A stretch of DNA of 64,000 nt from Enterobacteria phage vB_EcoM_IME540. A program made the position numbers and the translations under genes. Position 1 is the first letter of the stretch. Each line of letters opens with the position of its first letter. The stretch is from the sequence record MT150133.1, one strand, 5' to 3'. Under the pieces are notes generated by a model. The model saw nothing but the letters and a program-made list of their open reading frames with translations. It searched no databases and had not been told where the DNA came from. Of the stretch, positions 734-9,573 are shown in pieces.

Positions 734-962
734 CGTCTCGTTCCCATGATTGTTTAAAAATATCTTGCATAATAATTTGAAGTCTATTTTCTGTTGATGG
801 ACTTTCACTATCAGACACTTGAAGCATATAGTCACCAATAGGACAGAACATATCCAAGTCGCTTTCTAAATCTTCTTTGATTTTCTCTTCTGACGTTCCG
901 GTATCATAGGAATACAGATAAGAATCACATGACTCGGATTTAATATAAATCGCAATACTCAT
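726..962 (-). CDS. hypothetical protein, 78 aa, acidic
   Basis: ORF with ATGA start/stop overlap to the upstream gene and RBS GAGGAA inside the upstream coding sequence. Confidence 0.5.
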   Translation of the reverse strand: MSIAIYIKSESCDSYLYSYDTGTSEEKIKEDLESDLDMFCPIGDYMLQVSDSESPSTENRLQIIMQDIFKQSWERDDE

Positions 963-1552
963 TTACGGCATTCCTCAATAAACTCATTTAAATTCCGTTT
1001 GATTTTACCTTCGTCGTAAAGACGTTGTTGACGACGTAAACGCCATGGCATTTCAATAGCCAAGCACCAAATACTTAAAGCAGCGCCAGCTGTGAAAAGG
1101 TTCATTAATCCAGCACCAATAATAGTTCGTTCTAGCGCATCATTCCAGTTAGCATCGATTAAAAATGAACTCAACACTAACATTGGAAGTAAAGTAATAA
1201 AATATGCTACAACATATCGTCTGAACGTAAGCCATTCAGTATCGATGAGCTTAGCCTTTCCATCTTGGAGACAAATATACTTATCGTCAGTGCGGGTGAT
1301 TTTCTTTACTGGTTGCCAGCCGTTTACGATATAGCCCATTTTATATTCCTCAATTAAAAGCTGTTTCATTTCGGCAGTACAACCTGACCAATCTATTGTA
1401 CTGGCTGAAATTCCTTCATCACCGTCATCGATATTTCGCCAGGACTTTTTAATAATCATATGTTCACCACTTGGGATAATAATTCCAGCATTTTCCGACC
1501 GACGGATGAAGTTTGTATCAATACCCATACAACCGGGTTCATAAAGGGCCAT
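959..1552 (-). CDS. hypothetical membrane protein, 197 aa, with C-terminal RRQQR...NEFIEECRK tail
   Basis: TAATG overlap with upstream gene; hydrophobic segments YFITLLPMLVLSSFLI and IIGAGLMNLFTAGAALSIWCLAI. Confidence 0.6.
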   Translation of the reverse strand: MALYEPGCMGIDTNFIRRSENAGIIIPSGEHMIIKKSWRNIDDGDEGISASTIDWSGCTAEMKQLLIEEYKMGYIVNGWQPVKKITRTDDKYICLQDGKAKLIDTEWLTFRRYVVAYFITLLPMLVLSSFLIDANWNDALERTIIGAGLMNLFTAGAALSIWCLAIEMPWRLRRQQRLYDEGKIKRNLNEFIEECRK

Positions 1553-2241
1553 TACCAGCCCTCCATAGGGAATTCCAGATATACTTGAGCATTAACGCGG
1601 ATTTCATTAGTAATCTTTTTAACTCGGTCGGTATTACGAGACACACGACCAAACCAGCGCCAACCGTTACTTACTGCACGAGAACCTGTATGCCATGTCT
1701 GCCAATCAAACTGGAGCAACGTGCGGTCGGGGGCATCCCACTTGGTTAATTCATTAGACTCAATTTTTTCCAGAACTTCTTTATGCCACTGGCGATAGAT
1801 AAGTTCGCCTTCAGGAATCTGACTGAATTGTGCAGTTCCGGTTGCAAAATGAGTAGGACACACATCAGCGTTAACAAGACCAAGAATATGTTCAGAATGG
1901 TATCGAGGATTATCATAATCAGGTTGCCCTGCGGTAATAAAGTGTTGACCCACCGGAATATCCGGGCGTGGTACATCATCATGGTGGAAGCCTGGAATTG
2001 CAGGGTACCAGCCAGGCATTAACATGTGTACACGGGAATCAAATACAATATCAGGGCCACATTGCCAATCTTCAGGCAGGTTTTCAATAAAGCTACGAGT
2101 AATAGGACCGCCATGTTTATGAGCAAAATAAGCATCGCAATTAAAGAACATAGGCTCATTTTTAATCATATCATTACTGATATCTTGAGCAAAACCACCT
2201 ACTGCACGAGCTTTAGAATTAAAAATTTTTGGACCGTTCAT
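1552..2241 (-). CDS. hypothetical protein, 229 aa
   Basis: Long ORF in operon context; His/Asp-rich segment PGFHHDDVPRPD...HSEH could be a metal site; no family recognised. Confidence 0.6.
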   Translation of the reverse strand: MNGPKIFNSKARAVGGFAQDISNDMIKNEPMFFNCDAYFAHKHGGPITRSFIENLPEDWQCGPDIVFDSRVHMLMPGWYPAIPGFHHDDVPRPDIPVGQHFITAGQPDYDNPRYHSEHILGLVNADVCPTHFATGTAQFSQIPEGELIYRQWHKEVLEKIESNELTKWDAPDRTLLQFDWQTWHTGSRAVSNGWRWFGRVSRNTDRVKKITNEIRVNAQVYLEFPMEGW

Positions 2242-2255
2242 AATATTTTCCTCAC

Positions 2256-2468
2256 TTACTTTTTGTTGAAAAAGTACATTTTACCTTTAGGGGATAAGGA
2301 TACACGAAGTGCGTTACCAATACCAACTGAACATTTAACCAGGTCAGCAGATTTCAATTCACCAAATGCTTGACGAAGGTCACCGTCACGAGTGTTAACC
2401 ATCAGGCATTTAGCACCAGCTGCACGAACTTCGTTTAACATGTTGATTGCTTGGTTAGAAAGTTTCAT
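2256..2468 (-). CDS. hypothetical protein, 70 aa
   Basis: Start moved to internal ATG 2468-2466 with RBS GGAG (leader ...GGAGAATAAA-ATG) directly downstream of an early promoter cassette. Confidence 0.5.
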   Translation of the reverse strand: MKLSNQAINMLNEVRAAGAKCLMVNTRDGDLRQAFGELKSADLVKCSVGIGNALRVSLSPKGKMYFFNKK

Positions 2469-2505
2469 TTTATTCTCCATTTCACTCTGTTGTTTTGATA
2501 GGTCT

Positions 2506-2534
2506 ATAGTATCACACCTATAGACCTTGTACAC
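2506..2534 (-). promoter_or_regulatory. sigma70-type early promoter cassette (-35 GTGTAC, 17-bp spacer, -10 TACTAT) with 10-bp inverted repeat AGGTCTATAG/CTATAGACCT
   Basis: Minus strand ...GTGTACAAGGTCTATAGGTGTGATACTATAGACCTATCAAAACAACAGAGTGAAATGGAGAATAAA-ATG. Confidence 0.55.
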
Positions 2535-2546
2535 TGTTTTGTGCAA

Positions 2547-3506
2547 TTATTTTTCGAAAGGACGAATTAAATGTTGGTTACGCTTAAACCGTTCAATGTA
2601 GTCGTTTTCACCTAAAGTCTTGTACATATTAACCACAGCTTGGTAGTTTTCCCATGCATAAGTGCGGAACCAACCTGAAGTGATTGAGGTGCACACTTTC
2701 TCAAGGGCCATATAGAAACTTAATGATGGTGAAATATTGAAGTCATTAGGAACCTGTGAACGTTCTAGTGCCAGGACACAAGTTTCTTCATACACACCAG
2801 CCAGTTTAATAGCTTCAGGCAAAGCCTCGAACTTCTCACGAGAGGTCATGACTTCAGAACCTTCCTTCATATAAAAGGTATATGCAGGGCGCCCTGCCAA
2901 TGCCACTGCTTCATGGATAGAGTCGTGGTCCAGAGTATAAATGGGATCATTAAAGAACGATGATTTGTTTACATCCAATTTAGGGTGGGAATAGCTCAAC
3001 GTTTCTTTTTGACGTTGCAACATAATTTCCTGGAGTTCTTCGTTAAGGGTGATACCTTTATTACGAAGGTATTTGATGTGGGACATGGTTTTCAAGAAGA
3101 ACGGATTATTCTTCAAGAAACGATGGGAGGTTTTGATAGCCAGACAGATATCAGGGGTTGCCCAATAGAAACCTGTAAGACGGTCCTTTTTAATATGATT
3201 TTCGGCATATTTCAGGAGACGATAACTTGAGGTGAAATCTTCGTCTTGAAGCTCACCGGTAATTTCTCGTACGTTAGTCAGGGCACGAACGATATAAGCT
3301 TCAAAATAGGTTTCTTTACCATTGTACATGCATTTAAAAGCCTGGACATCAGGGTTATCCACAGGAACATGGGCACCAAACATCCGAGCTTTAAAGTGAT
3401 TCCATGAGCCTTGGTCGGCAATGAAATCCCAATCAGAATTTTCGATATGCTTACTTTCAATCAGACCAGCGTGGTGCAGTGCACGAGAACCAATAACTAA
3501 CATCAT
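2547..3506 (-). CDS. hypothetical protein, 319 aa; possible Pol-beta-type nucleotidyltransferase-like motif
   Basis: Start at ATG 3506-3504 with RBS GAGGAAA; N-terminal IGSRALHHAGLIESKHIENSDWDFIAD loosely resembles the hG[GS]...DxD signature. Confidence 0.6.
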   Translation of the reverse strand: MMLVIGSRALHHAGLIESKHIENSDWDFIADQGSWNHFKARMFGAHVPVDNPDVQAFKCMYNGKETYFEAYIVRALTNVREITGELQDEDFTSSYRLLKYAENHIKKDRLTGFYWATPDICLAIKTSHRFLKNNPFFLKTMSHIKYLRNKGITLNEELQEIMLQRQKETLSYSHPKLDVNKSSFFNDPIYTLDHDSIHEAVALAGRPAYTFYMKEGSEVMTSREKFEALPEAIKLAGVYEETCVLALERSQVPNDFNISPSLSFYMALEKVCTSITSGWFRTYAWENYQAVVNMYKTLGENDYIERFKRNQHLIRPFEK

Positions 3507-3525
3507 AATATTTTCCTCAGTAAAC

Positions 3526-3765
3526 TTAAATTTCAGCGACGTAATCGTTATGCAATTCCCACATATCATCAGAATTATTCTTAATGATAGGAATTATCTC
3601 ATTAGAGATTTCTTCAGCATAAGGGTCATTGATACAGTGGGCATCTTCAAAACGAACACCGTAATCAGACTTCTTATAAGAGAAGCCATAAATCTTTTTA
3701 AACTTGGCGCGAGTAATGCGTACCGGTTCATTAGACTTATCGGACATCGGAGCGTAATACCACAT
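3526..3765 (-). CDS. hypothetical protein, 79 aa
   Basis: ATG 3765 preceded by RBS GAGGAG in conserved leader ACACAAACATGAGGAGAACAT. Confidence 0.55.
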   Translation of the reverse strand: MWYYAPMSDKSNEPVRITRAKFKKIYGFSYKKSDYGVRFEDAHCINDPYAEEISNEIIPIIKNNSDDMWELHNDYVAEI

Positions 3766-3792
3766 ATGTTCTCCTCATGTTTGTGTAGGGTA

Positions 3793-3821
3793 ATAGTAAC
3801 ATGATTTTCTAGAGTTGTACA
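3793..3821 (-). promoter_or_regulatory. early promoter (-35 TGTACA, -10 TACTAT) with conserved leader
   Basis: Minus strand TGTACAACTCTAGAAAATCATGTTACTATTACCCTACACAAACATGAGGAGAACAT-ATG; leader near-identical to the one at 62501-62557. Confidence 0.45.
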
Positions 3822-4138
3822 TCACTTCTGCAATATTCTAAAAATAATTTATCATTGTCTACTGTATCCCAACGACGCCAAGACGGGTTCCAGACCAAAG
3901 CGTTGTCACCACAATCATTGAGCTTAAAATGGTCGTAGTACATAGCTATGTGTCTAGTCTCGTCACCAGAGAACCCCAGTATAGGCTCACCGTGGGTGTG
4001 ATACATATGATGGTGCATTGAGAGGTCGCATTTGTAAAACATCTCACGTTTACCACGAACGAACAAGAAGGCCTGTCCATTCATATAGAATTCTTTATTT
4101 GTTTTCAAAAGATATTTGAATACTGAATCTTTATGCAT
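3809..4138 (-). CDS. hypothetical protein, 109 aa, His-rich (MHHHMYHTHGE)
   Basis: Start at internal ATG 4138-4136 with strong RBS AGGAGGA. Confidence 0.5.
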   Translation of the reverse strand: MHKDSVFKYLLKTNKEFYMNGQAFLFVRGKREMFYKCDLSMHHHMYHTHGEPILGFSGDETRHIAMYYDHFKLNDCGDNALVWNPSWRRWDTVDNDKLFLEYCRSDVQL

Positions 4139-4168
4139 AAGTCCTCCTACCACATCCATGTGGTTAAA

Positions 4169-4396
4169 TTATTTTCCTAACGAAATACGAGTAGGTTTTT
4201 TACCGAAATAGTCTTCATAAGAACCATCTAAACGACCTGCTTTAGACCGACAATATGAATCGTACTTTTTGTAATAAGTCATCTCAGTATTATAACGCGG
4301 GTGTCTATCAGCCATAATAATACTTAACGGCCAACCTTTGGCATAATCGCGAAGACCATTTATTTTACGAATGTATCTTTTCTTTAATTTTAGCAT
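4169..4396 (-). CDS. possible small basic protein, 75 aa
   Basis: ORF only; no convincing RBS at either candidate ATG. Confidence 0.3.
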   Translation of the reverse strand: MLKLKKRYIRKINGLRDYAKGWPLSIIMADRHPRYNTEMTYYKKYDSYCRSKAGRLDGSYEDYFGKKPTRISLGK

Positions 4397-4614
4397 GAGC
4401 TCGGATACCAGATTTTACCATCGGCCTGAGCAACGAAGGTGCGTCCAGCTTCTTCACCATAACAAGAGCTATTCAGCCAATCTTCGAGACGAACTTCACC
4501 GTCATAATCGTCGAGCTCAACACCAAAACTTTGAGCAGAAGCCATATCTTTTACTTTCTTATACAGTGCAGCCAGTTCAAGTGCGGCTTTTTCTAATTCA
4601 TTAATATCAGTCAT
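4390..4614 (-). CDS. small acidic protein, 74 aa, member 1 of a four-gene paralog array (C-terminus WYPSSC)
   Basis: Start at internal ATG 4614-4612 with RBS AAGGTGA; shares N-terminal MTDINELEK and C-terminal W-x-SS-x-C pattern with neighbours. Confidence 0.55.
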   Translation of the reverse strand: MTDINELEKAALELAALYKKVKDMASAQSFGVELDDYDGEVRLEDWLNSSCYGEEAGRTFVAQADGKIWYPSSC

Positions 4615-4624
4615 TTTTATCACC

Positions 4625-4837
4625 TTAGCAAGACATAGAGGATGTAAACCAGAAACCTTCACCATCTGGGATACCGTAATCATCACGGGCCCATTCATAA
4701 TCATCATATTCCGGATTCTTTGGAGAAATGTATTGTCCACGACCAGAAACATGGAACTCTTCACCCGTTTCGTCAGCCACGGCCTGGCCTTTACGTACTA
4801 ATTCGCGGATTTGTTTTTCAATTTCATCAATAGTCAT
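4625..4837 (-). CDS. small acidic protein, 70 aa, paralog 2 (C-terminus WFTSSMSC)
   Basis: RBS AAGGAAA upstream of ATG 4837; N-terminal MTIDEIEK. Confidence 0.55.
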   Translation of the reverse strand: MTIDEIEKQIRELVRKGQAVADETGEEFHVSGRGQYISPKNPEYDDYEWARDDYGIPDGEGFWFTSSMSC

Positions 4838-4846
4838 TTTATTTCC

Positions 4847-5128
4847 TTAACATTCAGAAGAAGAGGACACCCAACCGCCATTTTCTAGGCTGGTGGTGTA
4901 ATCATGCTGGTTTACAATAGCATACTGGGCTTCACCGTATTCTTCCCAGTGGGCAAGGTCGGCTTTCAAGGCGCCAGGAGAATAATAGTCACCGCCCATA
5001 CCGCGAGCAGGGTATATATTAAAATGAGTCTCATATTTGTTAGCAATTTCCTCGGCACGACGAATAGCTTTATGGATATCATTTACTGCGTCAGCCAGCT
5101 CTTTATTTTTACGGTAATCATTCATCAT
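4847..5128 (-). CDS. small acidic protein, 93 aa, paralog 3 (C-terminus WVSSSSEC)
   Basis: RBS AAGGAAA upstream of ATG 5128. Confidence 0.55.
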   Translation of the reverse strand: MMNDYRKNKELADAVNDIHKAIRRAEEIANKYETHFNIYPARGMGGDYYSPGALKADLAHWEEYGEAQYAIVNQHDYTTSLENGGWVSSSSEC

Positions 5129-5137
5129 AGCGTTTCC

Positions 5138-5428
5138 TTAGCACATTGCCGAAGAGGAGACCCAAGCACCAACTGTAACGACACCGTTTTCAACTTCACC
5201 GCCATTGTTTTCAATTTCATCTTTAAACCATTGGGAGCATTCATAACCGACAGGATAATATGTACGGCCTGAACCATAACCACCGGTACTGAATTCAATA
5301 CCATATTCATCTGCGATTTCTTCACATTTGGATTCGATGGTGCCTACTTTACCCAGCAGGTCATAGATAGCCTTTTCTGCGGACAGCGCGCTGTTGTATT
5401 CAGGGATTTCAATTTCAATTTTATTCAT
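5138..5428 (-). CDS. small acidic protein, 96 aa, paralog 4 (C-terminus WVSSSAMC)
   Basis: RBS AAGGAA upstream; start overlaps stop of upstream gene. Confidence 0.55.
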   Translation of the reverse strand: MNKIEIEIPEYNSALSAEKAIYDLLGKVGTIESKCEEIADEYGIEFSTGGYGSGRTYYPVGYECSQWFKDEIENNGGEVENGVVTVGAWVSSSAMC

Positions 5429-5778
5429 GATTTACATTCCTTAATAAAGGTTTCAAGGTCATTACGTTTAGTTTGTTTTACATACTCATTATAATTAACC
5501 ATAGCTAAAGCATATCTCTTTTTACGCGGCTTGTTTATTTTATTAGTTTGGGCAATATCAAAGACCCATGGGATAAAAAATCCTATTAAAGCCGGAACCC
5601 AAATCCATGCAAGGCTCATATCTTCAAACGGATGGCGAGGCATACCATTAATAATCCCACCGACAAGAAATCCAATTATCCCTGCAGTCATACTAGTAGC
5701 AATGCCGAGGAATAAGGAAATAGCTATATCATAATCTGCTAATGCGTAACCAGGGTCGGTTTTACTAGGCTTATGCAT
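5425..5778 (-). CDS. hypothetical membrane protein, 117 aa, with C-terminal ...NDLETFIKECKS tail
   Basis: Start at internal ATG 5778-5776; two hydrophobic helices (IAISLFLGIATSMTAGIIGFLVGGII; AWIWVPALIGFFIPWVF). Confidence 0.55.
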   Translation of the reverse strand: MHKPSKTDPGYALADYDIAISLFLGIATSMTAGIIGFLVGGIINGMPRHPFEDMSLAWIWVPALIGFFIPWVFDIAQTNKINKPRKKRYALAMVNYNEYVKQTKRNDLETFIKECKS

Positions 5779-6307
5779 TTTGAACCTCTTTAGCGTATTC
5801 GCGACATTCAGTAATAAAACGATTAAGTTTACGTTGTTGTTTACGAATCTCTGATGTATACTCATTGGCTAAAATAATAAGCTCATCTTTATCGTAATTT
5901 TTAATATCCGAATAACTCGGGCGGCGGTCGACCATACCAAAGTGGTCACCATTTTCTAACATCAAATAGCATACTAAATGGTAATCATCGTCGGCATCAA
6001 CAAGCTGTTTATAATCGCTTGGTTCATTTAAAGAGTATACTGAATAGCGTAGCCCAGCGAATTCCACTCGTTGAATAGCCAGATTTACGTCAATAATTTC
6101 TAAAGCATCTGCAAAAGAAAGGTCCTCAGCTAAAGCAAAGATAAAGGGTAATTTGGTAGTATGCCCACGGCTAGATGTTCTGCTTAAGAAATCGTTTGAA
6201 TAACCTAGGTCTTGGCGAATTCTATAAAGAACTGCATTAGTTTCATGTGAAAGACCACTATGTTTAAACCAATCAATATTTGATATCAGGTCGTCGTATA
6301 AACTCAT
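5771..6307 (-). CDS. hypothetical protein, 178 aa, with C-terminal IRKQQRKLNRFITECREY module
   Basis: ORF with RBS GGAGGAGAGGAG upstream of ATG 6307. Confidence 0.6.
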   Translation of the reverse strand: MSLYDDLISNIDWFKHSGLSHETNAVLYRIRQDLGYSNDFLSRTSSRGHTTKLPFIFALAEDLSFADALEIIDVNLAIQRVEFAGLRYSVYSLNEPSDYKQLVDADDDYHLVCYLMLENGDHFGMVDRRPSYSDIKNYDKDELIILANEYTSEIRKQQRKLNRFITECREYAKEVQNA

Positions 6308-6330
6308 AATATTCTCCTCTCCTCCAAATA

Positions 6331-6348
6331 GGGAGACCGAAGTCTCCC
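6331..6348. terminator. stem-loop GGGAGAC-CGAA-GTCTCCC
   Basis: Perfect 7-bp stem with tetraloop between two minus-strand genes; same stem sequence recurs at 46366-46383. Confidence 0.45.
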
Positions 6349-6355
6349 GGTAACA

Positions 6356-6949
6356 TTACTTAAGTGAATTAATGTAGTCTTCGATATCAGCAGAAGTCGT
6401 ATCCATTCCAACTTGCGGGCCTTTAAACGTTTCTACGCGCATCAGGGTGTCTTCGATATCAATCTTGGTCAGTGCAGCAATTTCAACAACATCGTCGGCA
6501 GTAGCAATACCAAGGGCAGCCATATTACGAGTTTCACGGATGTACTCGAGCTTAACAGCCAGTTCCTGACGAGAGTCATCAAGTTCCTTAACCTTCAGTT
6601 TAATTTCATTACGCATTTCGATATAATCATCGGCTTTCTTACGAAGCTGAGTAGCTGTACGACGATAAAGGAGACCGAGTTTAGCATGTACCTGGACATC
6701 AGAGCCTTCGGCAATCAGTTTACGAATTTCACGTTCTTTAGAAGCAGCGAGCTGGTCTTTTTCATTAGCCAAAGCACGAATACGTTTTTCTTCATTCACA
6801 GACTTAACATGAGCAGTCTGGAGTTCAGTGATTTTATCAATCAGAGTAGAAGCAGCTTTGGTGTATTGGTCTTCGATTGACAGGTTCTGAGCCATTGCGG
6901 TGCCCAGTTTAGAACGAATGAATTCAACGATTTTCTTTAAAGTGTTCAT
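6356..6949 (-). CDS. PspA/IM30 (phage-shock protein A / Vipp1)-like coiled-coil protein, 197 aa
   Basis: Start at ATG 6949-6947 with RBS GAAGGAAA; heptad-rich sequence with segments resembling PspA ([13 protein letters not shown] vs RALAEKKQL; [18 protein letters not shown] vs ELENKLSETRARQQAL), from memory. Confidence 0.5.
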
Positions 6950-7025
6950 AGTATTTCCTTCAGTTGGTTGATATTTTGTAATCCATGAGGACATTATACC
7001 CTGTCCTCTGAGGTTTGTAAACATT

Positions 7026-7866: not shown

Positions 7867-8421
7867 TCAGTTCTTGTAGAACCGGAACGGGTTTATGTGG
7901 AAGGCTAACATAGCCTTAGGGATTTTACGAGACAAAAGACTCTTAAGTTTCCAACCACAGTACACGCGAAGGTAAAAGGTAATTCCACCTACTTTAAGAT
8001 ACGGAACCGAAGCAAAGACTCCCCATGCTTCATCATTCCACATCCATAACCAACCATGGTGAGCTTTATCAGGAGAACCAGATTCTACATCAGGATTACC
8101 GCGATAATGGAATTCTGAACTACAATCACGTCCTAGTTTATGATAAGCAAAGTTATAAGCTTTATTTCGCCATAGCCAAGCTACTCTCTGGAGGTAAACA
8201 CCACCAGGCATTTTCCTGATTTTAGCCCAACGTTTAATATGACCTTTGTCGCCATCAATTGGATTATCGTATGTCATCATCCAATCAAAGCCATAAGGCA
8301 ATTTACCGGTCTTTTTATTGTAGAAAGGAACTACAAAAGGCGCAAGGATAACGGCTAGAACCATAGAGATAAAATCCAGCGGGACCAACAGAATCCAACT
8401 CAAATATTTTAAAAGTTTCAT
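7867..8421 (-). CDS. hypothetical membrane-anchored protein, 184 aa, Trp/His-rich C-terminal domain
   Basis: N-terminal hydrophobic segment LSWILLVPLDFISMVLAVILAPFVVPF; RBS AGGAAATAAT; late-type TATAAATA box 27 nt upstream. Confidence 0.6.
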   Translation of the reverse strand: MKLLKYLSWILLVPLDFISMVLAVILAPFVVPFYNKKTGKLPYGFDWMMTYDNPIDGDKGHIKRWAKIRKMPGGVYLQRVAWLWRNKAYNFAYHKLGRDCSSEFHYRGNPDVESGSPDKAHHGWLWMWNDEAWGVFASVPYLKVGGITFYLRVYCGWKLKSLLSRKIPKAMLAFHINPFRFYKN

Positions 8422-8447
8422 ATTATTTCCTAAGTTAGTTTACTACA

Positions 8448-8455
8448 TATTTATA
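8448..8455 (-). promoter_or_regulatory. late promoter TATAAATA for gene 7867-8421
   Basis: Minus strand TTTTTTGTATAAATATGTAGTAAACTAACTTAGGAAATAAT-ATG. Confidence 0.5.
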
Positions 8456-8456
8456 C

Positions 8457-8484
8457 AAAAAAGGCCCAACCTTTCGGAAGGGCC
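8457..8484 (-). terminator. rho-independent terminator, copy 2 of the identical 30-bp element
   Basis: Same hairpin + T-run downstream of the tRNA/ncRNA region. Confidence 0.65.
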
Positions 8485-8490
8485 TTTAAC

Positions 8491-8715: not shown

Positions 8716-8790
8716 TGGTATCCCGCCCTGGGATCGAACCAGGACCGCAAACTTAGAAGGATCGTATGCTATCCATTACACCAGCGGGAC
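8716..8790 (-). tRNA. tRNA-Arg (anticodon UCU), CCA encoded
   Basis: Minus strand GTCCCGC...TTCTAAG...CCTGGTTCGATCCCAGGGCGGGATACCA; 7-bp acceptor stem, T-arm CCTGG-TTCGATC-CCAGG, anticodon loop CTTCTAA. Confidence 0.85.
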
Positions 8791-8795
8791 GTAAT

Positions 8796-9461
8796 TCAAA
8801 ATTTTATTTTACGGCCTTTATTCCAACCTTCAGGAATAATATCCGTTTTGTTAATACGTTTAGAAACTTTTTCTTCTAAAGAATGAATCCACATTTTTCC
8901 ATATCCGGAATTATTTTCACCTTGTTGGTGTTTATTTCTGGCGTGAGATTCTTTCATTTTATTTTTGGTTTCATCTGAATGGGTCTTACCCAAGAAAGAT
9001 TTAGTATTTGAAAATTTCTCTCTATACTTAGGATTATCCCAAAGTTGTTTAAACCTTTCCGAACCCATTTTACGATATTTTTCTTTAAGGTCTGGGTCGT
9101 TCTCAAATCTGGTTTTAAAAGCGGCAACTCCTTTTAAGGAAGCTTCTTTCTTTTTATCTAAATATTCTTCAGTGTTTAAATGGTCCCAACCACCTTCACC
9201 ACCTAATTTCAAATTATAAACATCAGGGCGCTTTAAAAACTCTTCAGTCACAATATTCTTTTCTGACTCAAACATAGAGGTTTTATCGTCAAAGAACTCT
9301 AATATTTCTTTAGAGAAATTTTCTATACCGTATTTGACCTGGGCCCTTTTTAAGAGTTTACCAGAACCAAAATATGCATCATTCAAATTTTCGGTTGAAT
9401 GGGCGCCTATATAGATTTTATTATTAATTTTGTTTGTTATTTTATAAGTGTAATGGAACAT
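8796..9461 (-). CDS. segB: GIY-YIG homing endonuclease, segB-like, inside the tRNA cluster
   Basis: 221 aa; N-terminal YKITNKINNKIYIGAHST...GSGK motif; basic NUMOD-like C-terminus; RBS AGGAGA; same position as T4 segB. Confidence 0.8.
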   Translation of the reverse strand: MFHYTYKITNKINNKIYIGAHSTENLNDAYFGSGKLLKRAQVKYGIENFSKEILEFFDDKTSMFESEKNIVTEEFLKRPDVYNLKLGGEGGWDHLNTEEYLDKKKEASLKGVAAFKTRFENDPDLKEKYRKMGSERFKQLWDNPKYREKFSNTKSFLGKTHSDETKNKMKESHARNKHQQGENNSGYGKMWIHSLEEKVSKRINKTDIIPEGWNKGRKIKF

Positions 9462-9502: not shown

Positions 9503-9573
9503 TGGCCCTGGGTGGAATCGAACCACCATCCAGCGATTATGAGTCGCTCGCTTGACCGTCCAGCTACAGGGCC
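9503..9573 (-). tRNA. tRNA with CAU anticodon (Met, or Ile if lysidine-modified), CCA not encoded
   Basis: Minus strand GGCCCTG...AGCGA-CTCATAA-TCGCT...GGTGG-TTCGATT-CCACC-CAGGGCC-A. Confidence 0.8.

Follow-up and report, generated by a model that had tools for sequence, protein, structure and literature searches.

Tail-bearing genes in the window

The window is the whole stretch of 64,000 nucleotides that was analyzed from Enterobacteria phage vB_EcoM_IME540 (MT150133.1), which is a T4-like phage of the Dhakavirus group. Three of its genes end in a similar short tail (Table 1), and they are the Dhakavirus counterparts of T4 e.2-e.5, with which they share cluster, order and strand. The three tails that were quoted in the initial annotation are present exactly: FIEECRK and the stop codon are encoded at 982-959, FIKECKS and the stop codon at 5448-5425, and FITECR at 5818-5801, after which the protein continues for nine residues to a stop codon at 5773-5771.

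Table 1. Tail-bearing genes and associated features of the e.6-to-nudE region
Feature	Coordinates	Strand	Description
e.2 homolog	959..1552	-	N-terminal domain (poorly modelled), two transmembrane helices, tail ...RLRRQQRLYDEGKIKRNLNEFIEECRK
FIEECRK motif	962..982	-	e.2 homolog; codons TTT ATT GAG GAA TGC CGT AAA, read from sequence
e.3/e.4-like small protein	5425..5778	-	two transmembrane helices and tail ...KPRKKRYALAMVNYNEYVKQTKRNDLETFIKECKS
FIKECK motif	5431..5448	-	e.3/e.4-like gene; codons TTT ATT AAG GAA TGT AAA
e.5-position soluble protein	5771..6307	-	directly downstream of e.6; tail ...IRKQQRKLNRFITECREYAKEVQNA
FITECR motif	5801..5818	-	e.5-position gene; codons TTT ATT ACT GAA TGT CGC
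e.6	6356..6949	-	coiled-coil neighbour heading the cluster; 74% identical to T4 e.6
Promoter-like site, sigma-70 type	6993..7021	-	TTTACA-17-TATAAT upstream of e.6; consensus match only

The e.2 homolog matched PHROG 2203 (E = 2.6e-69, residues 32-197) and was 42% identical to T4 e.2 over residues 32-197 (tblastn). The Bp7 and JS10 annotations name its counterpart e.2, and a precomputed table gave PF26896 for all e.2 homologs. The protein has the architecture of e.2, with an N-terminal domain, two hydrophobic helices (segments around positions 112 and 143) and, at the C-terminus, a basic tail, and its gene lies just upstream of nudE, with one small gene (726-962) in between. The e.3/e.4-like protein matched PHROG 2330 (E = 1.4e-43), fell into the same BLAST cluster as T4 e.3 and HX01 e.3, and showed two hydrophobic segments followed by a basic helical tail. 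Its homologs in Mosigvirus align all the way into the tail, and the start of the gene is 5778 and not 5865, consistent with the Bp7 annotation. Unlike in T4, ∼3.9 kb of other genes lie between e.2 and the e.3-like gene.

The e.5-position protein matched PHROG 8788 (E = 5.6e-117), and homolog searches returned Dhakavirus proteins only. It is devoid of hydrophobic helices, follows e.6 and carries the motif and then a short extension at its end. Its ending is FITECREYAKEVQNA, as compared with FVKECREYVKAITIPSK in T4 e.5; CREYAKEV resembles CREYVKAI of T4 e.5 and the RKQQRKLN part resembles the e.2 tail. The N-terminal part had no BLAST link to those of T4 and Mosigvirus e.5, and this pair was not among the significant ones in hhalign; tail and synteny are all that the protein has in common with T4 e.5. 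The set thus comprises two membrane proteins and one soluble protein, as first described. Apart from the tail they had been called unrelated, and no homology was detectable between their N-terminal parts; profile comparison of the N-terminal parts of the carrier families showed weak links or none. The promoter-like site upstream of e.6 agreed with the consensus at 11 of 12 positions, the best match in the region, and is likely to be the early promoter of the e.6-to-nudE unit.

Distribution of the tail motif

In a six-frame translation of the whole 64 kb window FIxEC[RK] occurred exactly three times, each time in the coding orientation of a real minus-strand gene, whose stop codon was 1-9 residues away. 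The expectation from the amino-acid composition of the window was 0.0034 in ∼20,000 residues, and no per-protein shuffle out of 2000 contained two or more occurrences. The pattern was defined post hoc and was independently replicated in T4 and many other phages.

In T4, the early genes e.2-e.5 lie between e.6 and nudE, and all four have the tail in common with each other and with the window proteins. T4 e.2 ends in ...NNFITECRKLK, e.3 in ...KEFVIDCRKIK, and e.4 and e.5 in ...MKFVKESRCKSQS and ...EKFVKECREYVKAITIPSK, respectively. Searching the whole T4 genome with a tail HMM retrieved e.2, e.3, e.4 and e.5 only (13.7-21.4 bits; next best 5.9). The initial annotation had missed that the genes are T4 e.2-e.5 and that the motif is cluster-wide in T-even and related phages. 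We found no prior description of the motif shared by e.2-e.5.

Across 38 loci, all 90 tail hits of at least 10 bits were on the gene strand and at most 16 residues from the stop codon, and at least one hit was obtained in each locus whose sequence extends downstream of e.6. The motif was situated 1-27 residues from the C-terminus in every carrier, and its occurrence at C-termini is confined to the e.6-to-nudE early gene cluster. In related phages the carriers constitute at least 13 families without BLAST links between them, comprising two-helix membrane proteins and soluble proteins. Most genomes have 3-6 carriers and some phages have one recognisable tail. Tails were found in every related locus examined, as far as Aeromonas phage 31 (ELFVDYCRR, the single recognisable carrier), Aeromonas phage 65 (DFIKECR and RFVNECR), CYPEBC003 (KFIHSCKK) and Providencia PSTCR6 (QYVNACRKLIK). 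Loss of the tail from homologs had been named as the observation that would count against a shared module; the homologs in other phages keep it, so this test fails to refute the module.

The window, T4 and Mosigvirus have Glu at +3. Other genera retain F-I-x-x-C-R but have Q, D, H, Y, G, S, K, N or M at this position, so that Glu is dispensable there and the core can be reduced to F-[IV]-x-x-C-R. The overall core is [DE]-x-[FYW]-[IV]-x-x-C-[RK], which can also be given as [LIM]-x-x-[FYW]-[IV]-x-x-C-[RK].

Conservation and recombination of the tail

The final F-I-x-E-C-R-K was invariant in 25 e.2 homologs (39-97% identity), and in divergent e.2 pairs the motif was 74% identical vs. 35% for the remainder. 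The motif was conserved more strongly than the remainder of each family, and the residues after C-R were not conserved. The proposal that the conservation is at the protein level was borne out by the synonymous codons, which vary freely at the conserved residues. The Cys was encoded by TGC (30) and TGT (29) and the Arg by six codons (CGT 21, AGA 16, AGG 9, CGA 7, CGC 6 and CGG 1), and six codons were likewise in use at the Ile/Val position. Further, the motif persisted at divergences at which synonymous sites are saturated. Because codon use varies while the residues stay, the comparison indicates clearly that selection acts on the tail peptide. Judged by these sequences, the shared tail is a real protein-level tag and is much wider than was first seen.

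In one locus (L014) e.2 was deleted via recombination between the tail-coding sequences of e.3 and e.2 at TGCAGGAAA, and the e.2 alleles are mosaic, with a variable block that stops at the tail. The tail-coding DNA repeat evidently also serves as a recombination junction, and the tails have the appearance of a single cassette that is homologous and recombines, and not of independent convergence. With tails that are homologous by descent, part of the similarity would be inheritance and not proof of a shared function.

Predicted structure and possible role of the tail

The AlphaFold2 model of e.2 was poor overall (mean pLDDT 57.7). It contained helices at residues 110-134 and 138-196, and the second transmembrane helix (TM2) continued as one helix to residue 196 with a pLDDT of 70-79. 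In the tail, Leu at -3, Phe, Ile and Cys fell within a 100-degree arc, with a hydrophobic moment of 0.4-0.74. The tail is predicted to be a short amphipathic alpha-helix in the cytoplasm, one face of which carries the conserved residues. Met or Ile sometimes takes the place of Cys, as would be expected of a residue that packs and not of one that reacts.

The reading that we favor, although we hold it to be a little short of probable, is that the tail is a docking or assembly helix for one common partner and a cassette that was spread over the early accessory proteins. Duplication and recombination would have carried this cassette onto many early accessory proteins of the e.6-to-nudE cluster, with selection acting on the peptide to maintain it. 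Leu at -3, Phe at 0, Ile/Val at +1 and Cys at +4 would together make up a hydrophobic stripe, with the acidic residue and Arg/Lys at its sides, that may fit a groove on the single common partner. In the two-helix membrane carriers (e.2, e.3 and e.4 types) the tail follows just after the basic stretch behind TM2 and would be displayed on the inner side of the cytoplasmic membrane; the same contact would be made by the soluble carriers (e.5 type and others). That the tail binds a partner or localises its carrier, as was first suggested, we infer from its anatomy. A broader proposal, possible but rather doubtful, is that the tail is an address tag of T-even and related phages, by which a changeable set of early effectors, some anchored in the membrane and others soluble, would be brought to one hub on the inner side of the cell membrane, with effectors joining and leaving by recombination in the tag DNA. 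A host protein or a complex made by the phage would serve as the hub. If true, the tag would do early in infection what the capsid-targeting sequence does for head-packaged proteins.

We consider it unlikely that the tails instead bind each other, which would make them elements of homo- or hetero-oligomerisation, in the form of a short coiled coil or helical bundle, with no need of an outside partner. Either one complex of membrane and soluble carriers would result, or each protein would be oligomerised separately. One hydrophobic stripe with charged flanks is reminiscent of the a/d and e/g positions of coiled coils, but a motif of ∼8-12 residues is short for a stable coiled coil, and F, I/V, C and R are held far more tightly than generic heptad positions require. 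The carriers are always co-transcribed in one cluster, with several of them in most genomes, and phage CC31 retains several tails in the absence of e.6, both of which would suit self-binding; Aeromonas phage 31, with one recognisable carrier, would not. Still, the single recognisable tail of some phages fits homo-oligomerisation as well as docking.

The e.6 protein as a candidate partner

For the favored docking helix, e.6 is the best candidate partner among the phage proteins as judged by synteny, although it is not obligatory. The e.6 gene was found in 1110 phage records, and the gene directly downstream of it bears the motif in the tevenvirus, Aeromonas phage 31, Aeromonas phage 65, CYPEBC003 and L080-L082 loci, down to an e.6 identity of ∼33%. 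In Providencia PSTCR6 the gene adjoining e.6 has a degenerate QYINEKRG only, and the clear QYVNACRKLIK gene is located further downstream. In the complete genome of CC31 e.6 was absent (best E = 0.62), yet at least four tail-bearing genes were present, so that the partner is at least as likely to be a protein of the host or another tail.

The AlphaFold2 model of e.6 (mean pLDDT 76.6) showed a helix at the N-terminus in addition to a long hairpin and short helices. Its nine best PDB matches in Foldseek were all Vipp1, of the PspA/Vipp1 (ESCRT-III) superfamily, at full length and with E values from 4e-3 to 5e-2, which is a non-specific fold match. At the sequence level e.6 had no relative in the PDB, e.6 and 39 homologs gave no match to PF04012 (PspA_IM30) even at E values up to 10, and hhalign of e.6 with an approximate sequence of E. 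coli PspA gave a probability of 0.6%. The locus does resemble PspA/Vipp1 with its small anchors (PspB/PspC, LiaI) in that a protein with a predicted hairpin coiled coil is encoded beside small two-helix membrane proteins with cytoplasmic amphipathic tails. However, with a fold match that is non-specific and without sequence support, and with CC31 keeping its tails in the absence of e.6, it is quite unlikely that the tail docks its carriers onto e.6 as a PspA/Vipp1-like membrane-remodelling coiled-coil, in the way that PspC and LiaI anchor PspA and LiaH, even though e.6 heads the cluster and is so widely followed by a motif-bearing gene.

Overlap of the motif with Shine-Dalgarno sequences

In two of the window genes the motif DNA also contains the ribosome-binding site of the next gene and in the third it does not, as the initial annotation had noted. 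In the e.2 homolog this is GAGGAA at 976-971 (ATG at 962-960) and in the e.3/e.4-like gene AAGGAA at 5442-5437 (ATG at 5428), both 8-9 nt upstream of the next ATG. The corresponding codons of the e.5-position gene, ACT GAA, are without a Shine-Dalgarno sequence, and GAGG at 5788-5785 precedes the ATG at 5778. Among 65 distinct tails ∼27 contain AAGGAA or GAGGAA in the x-E codons as Shine-Dalgarno sequence for the following gene, and in T4 e.2 and e.3 this role falls to AGGAAA in the R-K codons. The Glu at +3 was encoded by GAA in 48 cases and by GAG in one, vs. a background of 80% GAA, an excess that is non-significant once relatedness is allowed for.

These overlaps, together with the L014 deletion between tails and the mosaic e.2 alleles, would be expected if the constraint acted mainly on DNA or RNA, with the gene end kept as downstream translation-initiation region and gene-swap junction and the peptide as a by-product. 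This is improbable, since F, I/V, C and R belong to no Shine-Dalgarno sequence, the Cys and Arg codons are free while the amino acids are kept, e.5-type genes retain the motif though the downstream start is elsewhere, and the motif outlasts the saturation of synonymous sites.

Comparison with known peptides and cassettes

Sliding-clamp-binding tails, the C-terminal tip of SSB and the MIM helices of ESCRT-III are terminal peptides by which many proteins bind one hub. The tail is like them in being a short terminal motif, often helical and with one hydrophobic face, that is present on unrelated carriers and outconserves the remainder of these. It differs in its sequence pattern, in the location of all carriers in one gene cluster and in the recombination of the motif DNA itself. 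Even in T4, which is studied better than any other large phage, e.2-e.5 are hypothetical proteins, as are their many relatives. Through the common tail these otherwise unrelated proteins become one functional group that can be approached by a single handle, a peptide of ∼12 residues. If one hub were found, dozens of protein families would receive a role together, and it would become apparent how such phages build and reshuffle their effector repertoire.

The capsid-targeting sequence (MKTYQEFIAE) is, like the tail, a short address peptide on unrelated, fast-evolving phage proteins, and the two resemble each other locally (hydrophobic-x-x-F-[IL]-x-E). The capsid-targeting sequence is N-terminal, cut by gp21 and found on late, soluble head proteins, whereas the tail is C-terminal, early and often membrane-embedded, and needs Cys-Arg rather than Glu. 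The tail was rejected as an internal-protein capsid-targeting sequence, which is located N-terminally, and as a gp21 site, in which [IL]-x-E is invariant; prohead packaging and gp21 processing of integral membrane carriers are implausible. It was also rejected as an ssrA-like or MuA-like degron, which is an element of the extreme C-terminus. A role of the tail as a signal for processing or turnover, in one version as a C-terminal degron for a host protease, is highly improbable: T4 IPII and IPIII start with MKTYQEFIAE, two internal-protein-like genes of the window with MKTYQEFITEA and MKSYQEFIAES, tails such as LNEFIEEC fit hydrophobic-x-x-F-I-x-E and many tails have basic residues at the extreme C-terminus, but the +3 Glu is exchanged between genera with F-I-x-x-C-R unchanged, capsid targeting concerns packaged proteins while many carriers are early integral membrane proteins, and the 9-27 residues after the motif in e.5 types fit a strict C-terminal degron poorly.

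The promoter-early stem-loop cassettes of T4-type phages are intergenic elements with an early promoter and a stem-loop. The tail was rejected as such a cassette, as its repeat is coding and only ∼20-30 nt long, and no promoter-like or terminator-like sites coincided with the three window tails. What the tail DNA and these cassettes have in common is that both mediate recombination.

The shared C-terminal tail in the window

The tails of the e.2 homolog, the e.3/e.4-like protein and the protein in the e.5 position matched exactly those quoted in the initial annotation. The three carriers belong to three different PHROG families, and their division into two membrane proteins and one soluble protein held, as two had two hydrophobic helices and the third had none. 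In a six-frame translation of all 64 kb, the motif F-I-x-E-C-[RK] occurred three times, every time on the gene strand and 1, 1 and 9 residues from the stop. The window's own amino-acid composition predicts 0.0034 occurrences in ~20,000 residues, and more than one occurrence was found in 0 of 2000 shuffles. A chance origin was rejected on this excess together with the replication of the motif in T4 and other genera. The three carriers had no Pfam match in a Pfam copy searched without PF26896; this accession is precomputed for every e.2 homolog.

By megablast, window 900-6400 showed 95-97% identity to the Escherichia phages MX01, QL01, WG01 and Bp7, all T4-like members of the genus Dhakavirus, and its Bp7 counterpart extends from nudE through e.2 to e.6. 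The best promoter-like site in the region, a consensus match, was located just upstream of e.6, and no terminator-like site followed it on the same strand in the region scanned. The cluster from e.6 to nudE may fit one early transcription unit, a weak assignment resting on the consensus match.

Features of the window discussed in the text
Feature	Position	Strand
nudE	284-733	minus
Small gene	726-962	minus
e.2	959-1552	minus
Other genes (~3.9 kb, minus strand, between e.2 and the e.3/e.4-like gene)		
340-residue protein, DUF7277 and DUF7275	2547-3569	minus
W-x-[ST]-S-S-x-x-C paralog	~4390-4614	minus
W-x-[ST]-S-S-x-x-C paralog	4625-4837	minus
W-x-[ST]-S-S-x-x-C paralog	4847-5128	minus
W-x-[ST]-S-S-x-x-C paralog	5138-5428	minus
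e.3/e.4-like gene	5425-5778	minus
Gene in e.5 position	5771-6307	minus
e.6	6356-6949	minus
Promoter-like site TTTACA-17-TATAAT	7021-6993	minus
tRNA-Arg(tct) and tRNA-Met(cat) either side of a 221-residue ORF	8716-8790, 8796-9461, 9503-9573	minus
Internal-protein-like gene (90 residues)	~11244	minus
Internal-protein-like gene (74 residues)	~11470	minus

The 340-residue protein matched Pfam DUF7277 (E 2e-26) and DUF7275 (8e-77). Homologs were present upstream of e.6 in Aeromonas phage 31 (locus L039, 5556-6458) and within the cluster in many tevenviruses. The ORF between the two tRNA genes starts with YKITNKINNKIYIGAH... and, judged by eye, is a candidate GIY-YIG homing endonuclease in the position of T4 segB.

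The tail in T4 and other phages

The T4 locus and the remaining T4 genome were scored with a tail HMM on every open frame of at least 30 residues. Four consecutive genes, e.5-e.4-e.3-e.2, end alike (...EKFVKECREYVKAITIPSK, ...MKFVKESRCKSQS, ...KEFVIDCRKIK and ...NNFITECRKLK, respectively). Only these four matched, with 13.7-21.4 bits, and the next-best score was 5.9 in non-coding frames, which restricts the motif to a single early gene cluster. In T4 strain 'wild' (KJ477684; locus L002, 8001-8488) e.2 is present as two overlapping frames, 8001-8309 and 8297-8488, the cause being a frameshift or a sequencing error; e.2 is intact, at 162 residues, in other Tequatrovirus loci.

A set of 34 IMG/VR loci anchored on e.6, together with Bp7, T4, HX01 and IME523, yielded 82 distinct tail-bearing proteins. 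BLAST of their N-terminal parts separated them into at least 13 unlinked families, some with two transmembrane helices and others without any, and profile comparison of the N-terminal parts gave weak links (for example T4-type e.5 to Kanagawavirus e.5, E 3.7e-4) or none. All 90 HMM matches of at least 10 bits were on the gene strand and at most 16 residues from the stop. At least one tail, and usually 3-6, was present in each locus for which sequence downstream of e.6 was available. In other genera the Glu was substituted (FIKHCR, FIKYCR, FIKGCR, FISKCR, FIDDCR, FIMQCR), which leaves [FYW]-[IV]-x-x-C-[RK] as the constant core. Ahead of it there is usually an acidic residue, as well as a hydrophobic one at -3 (Phe being position 0). 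Distant tails were found in Aeromonas phage 31 (...ELFVDYCRRTASKK), Aeromonas phage 65 of another subfamily (...DFIKECRYELGVYNEK, and ...RFVNECR with 27 residues after it), Enterobacter phage CYPEBC003 (...EKFIHSCKK) and Providencia phage PSTCR6 (...QYVNACRKLIK). The tail is thus real and general beyond the window, and one motif is common to T4 e.2-e.5 and at least 13 otherwise unrelated families. A weak literature search found no published description of it.

Constraint on the peptide and on the coding DNA

As the initial annotation stated, the motif codons of two window genes carry a ribosome-binding site ahead of the next start codon, GAGGAA (976-971) and AAGGAA (5442-5437), and those of the third (ACT GAA) do not; start 5778 is served by GAGG at 5788-5785. 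Among 65 distinct tail-coding sequences, the Shine-Dalgarno sequence of the next gene fell within the x-E codons in ~27. It was found in the R-K codons (AGGAAA) of T4 e.2 and e.3, and outside the motif in the e.5 types. Codon usage was as follows: TTT 55 and TTC 10 for Phe, six codons for Ile/Val, TGC 30 and TGT 29 for Cys, and CGT 21, AGA 16, AGG 9, CGA 7, CGC 6 and CGG 1 for Arg. Overlap with a Shine-Dalgarno sequence cannot account for F, I/V, C or R, and a ribosome-binding by-product was rejected as the main cause of the motif, because the Shine-Dalgarno sequence lies in varying codons or outside and the choice of Cys and Arg codons varies freely.

In divergent pairs, identity was higher in the motif than in the rest of the protein for e.2 (74% vs 35%), e.3 (53% vs 30%) and Kanagawavirus e.5 (89% vs 53%), and F-I-x-E-C-R-K was invariant across 25 e.2 homologs. 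Together with the variation in synonymous Cys and Arg codons, this upholds the proposed conservation at the protein level, and the tail is maintained by selection on the peptide.

A conserved ATG within GAA-TGY, or start-stop mini-ORFs, was rejected as an explanation, as it is not universal: variants with Asp, CAG or GAG have no ATG. The Glu codon at +3 was GAA in 48 cases and GAG in 1, against a background of 80% GAA, which makes the excess unconvincing as support for this reading; given the relatedness of the sequences, it was not taken as an RNA-level signal. Where the motif is encoded as AAG GAA TGT A(A/G)A (window 5431-5442; T4 strain 'wild', L002 7252-7262), the Shine-Dalgarno sequence is followed by an out-of-frame ATG-TAA or ATG-TAG start-stop, and the annotated T4 nudE start (8470) is the ATG within GAA-TGC of the e.2 motif. 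Both are probably incidental.

Predicted tail structure and putative function

In membrane carriers the second transmembrane helix (TM2) is followed by a Lys/Arg-rich stretch and then the tail, which by the positive-inside rule would face the cytoplasm; no signal peptide is present in the soluble carriers. AlphaFold2 modelled the N-terminal domain of e.2 poorly, and TM2 and the tail came out as a single continuous helix to residue 196 (pLDDT 70-79). On a helical wheel, positions -3, 0, +1 and +4 (L, F, I/V, C) fall inside a 100-degree arc flanked by the acidic residue and Arg, with a hydrophobic moment of 0.4-0.74. The tail is predicted to be a C-terminal amphipathic helix. The Cys is sometimes swapped for Met or Ile (WIKEMK, DFIKGIRS, DFVMEMRK) and is displaced by two positions in the e.4 type (FVKESRC), which suggests a small hydrophobic packing residue and not a reactive thiol.

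The best reading, which we hold tentatively as a putative function, is a docking or assembly helix: the tail would dock on, or assemble with, a common partner. Self-association of the tails seems unlikely.

That e.6 is the specific partner is quite unlikely. This protein is conserved in 1110 phage records, and the gene directly after it bears the motif in nearly all loci. Its model consists of an N-terminal helix, a long hairpin and short helices, and its nine best Foldseek matches in the PDB were Vipp1 structures of the PspA/Vipp1 superfamily; nothing relevant was found in the literature on phage PspA-like proteins. The link between e.6 and the tail was tested directly with a second locus set anchored on NudE, in which two tail-bearing loci lacked e.6 within 10 kb. 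In one of these, Enterobacter phage CC31, at least four genes upstream of nudE bear the tail, and no e.6 homolog was found in the complete genome (best E 0.62). An obligatory role of e.6 as partner is therefore contradicted. The CC31 genome (NC_014662; loci L089-L092) is also without e.5, e.7 and e.8, and its tRNA cluster adjoins the retained tail-bearing genes.

A DNA-level constraint, on a recombination junction or on the initiation region, is very unlikely to account for the tail. In the Tequatrovirus-like locus L014, e.3 ends in CRKLK and adjoins nudE. Its DNA is T4 e.3-like up to GATTGCAGGAAA, and beginning with TGCAGGAAA it is like the end of T4 e.2; recombination between the two tail-coding sequences therefore removed e.2. 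Comparison of L014 11880-12010 with L002 7928-8058 and 8412-8542 placed the crossover at the shared TGCAGGAAA. Dhakavirus e.2 alleles are mosaic, with a variable block that ends at the tail, and the e.5-position tail of the window, RKQQRKLNRFITECREYAKEV, looks like a fusion of an e.2-type segment (RRQQRL...LNEFIEEC) and an ending of the e.5 type (CREYVK in T4). Genes are thus lost and exchanged at the motif-coding DNA, which acts as a junction; this role is regarded as following from the repeat and not as what maintains the peptide. Near-identical Dhakavirus genomes have differing combinations of the N-terminal domain of e.2 (residues 1-100) and the transmembrane half, and the transmembrane and tail half of the window e.2 is nearer to T4 than to Bp7. 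That the tail is a signal for processing or degradation is highly improbable.

Similarity to capsid-targeting sequences and a second C-terminal motif

The T4 internal proteins IPII and IPIII start with MKTYQEFIAE, and their likeness to the tail ...LNEFIEEC rests on F-I-x-E. Unlike in the capsid-targeting sequence, the Glu of the tail is dispensable, the tail is C-terminal and many of its carriers are membrane proteins; a common mechanism is therefore unlikely. Two internal-protein-like genes of the window also start with a capsid-targeting sequence, reading MKTYQEFITEA and MKSYQEFIAES; their starts are MKTYQEFITEAK... (74 residues) and MKSYQEFIAESI... (90 residues).

Four tandem small paralogs in window 4390-5428, for which no Pfam match was found, share a second motif at their C-termini, W-x-[ST]-S-S-x-x-C, in which Cys is the final residue. 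They end in AWVSSSAMC, GWVSSSSEC, FWFTSSMSC and IWYPSSC, and the same endings also occur in distant relatives (loci L030 and L036, and the Providencia locus L045).
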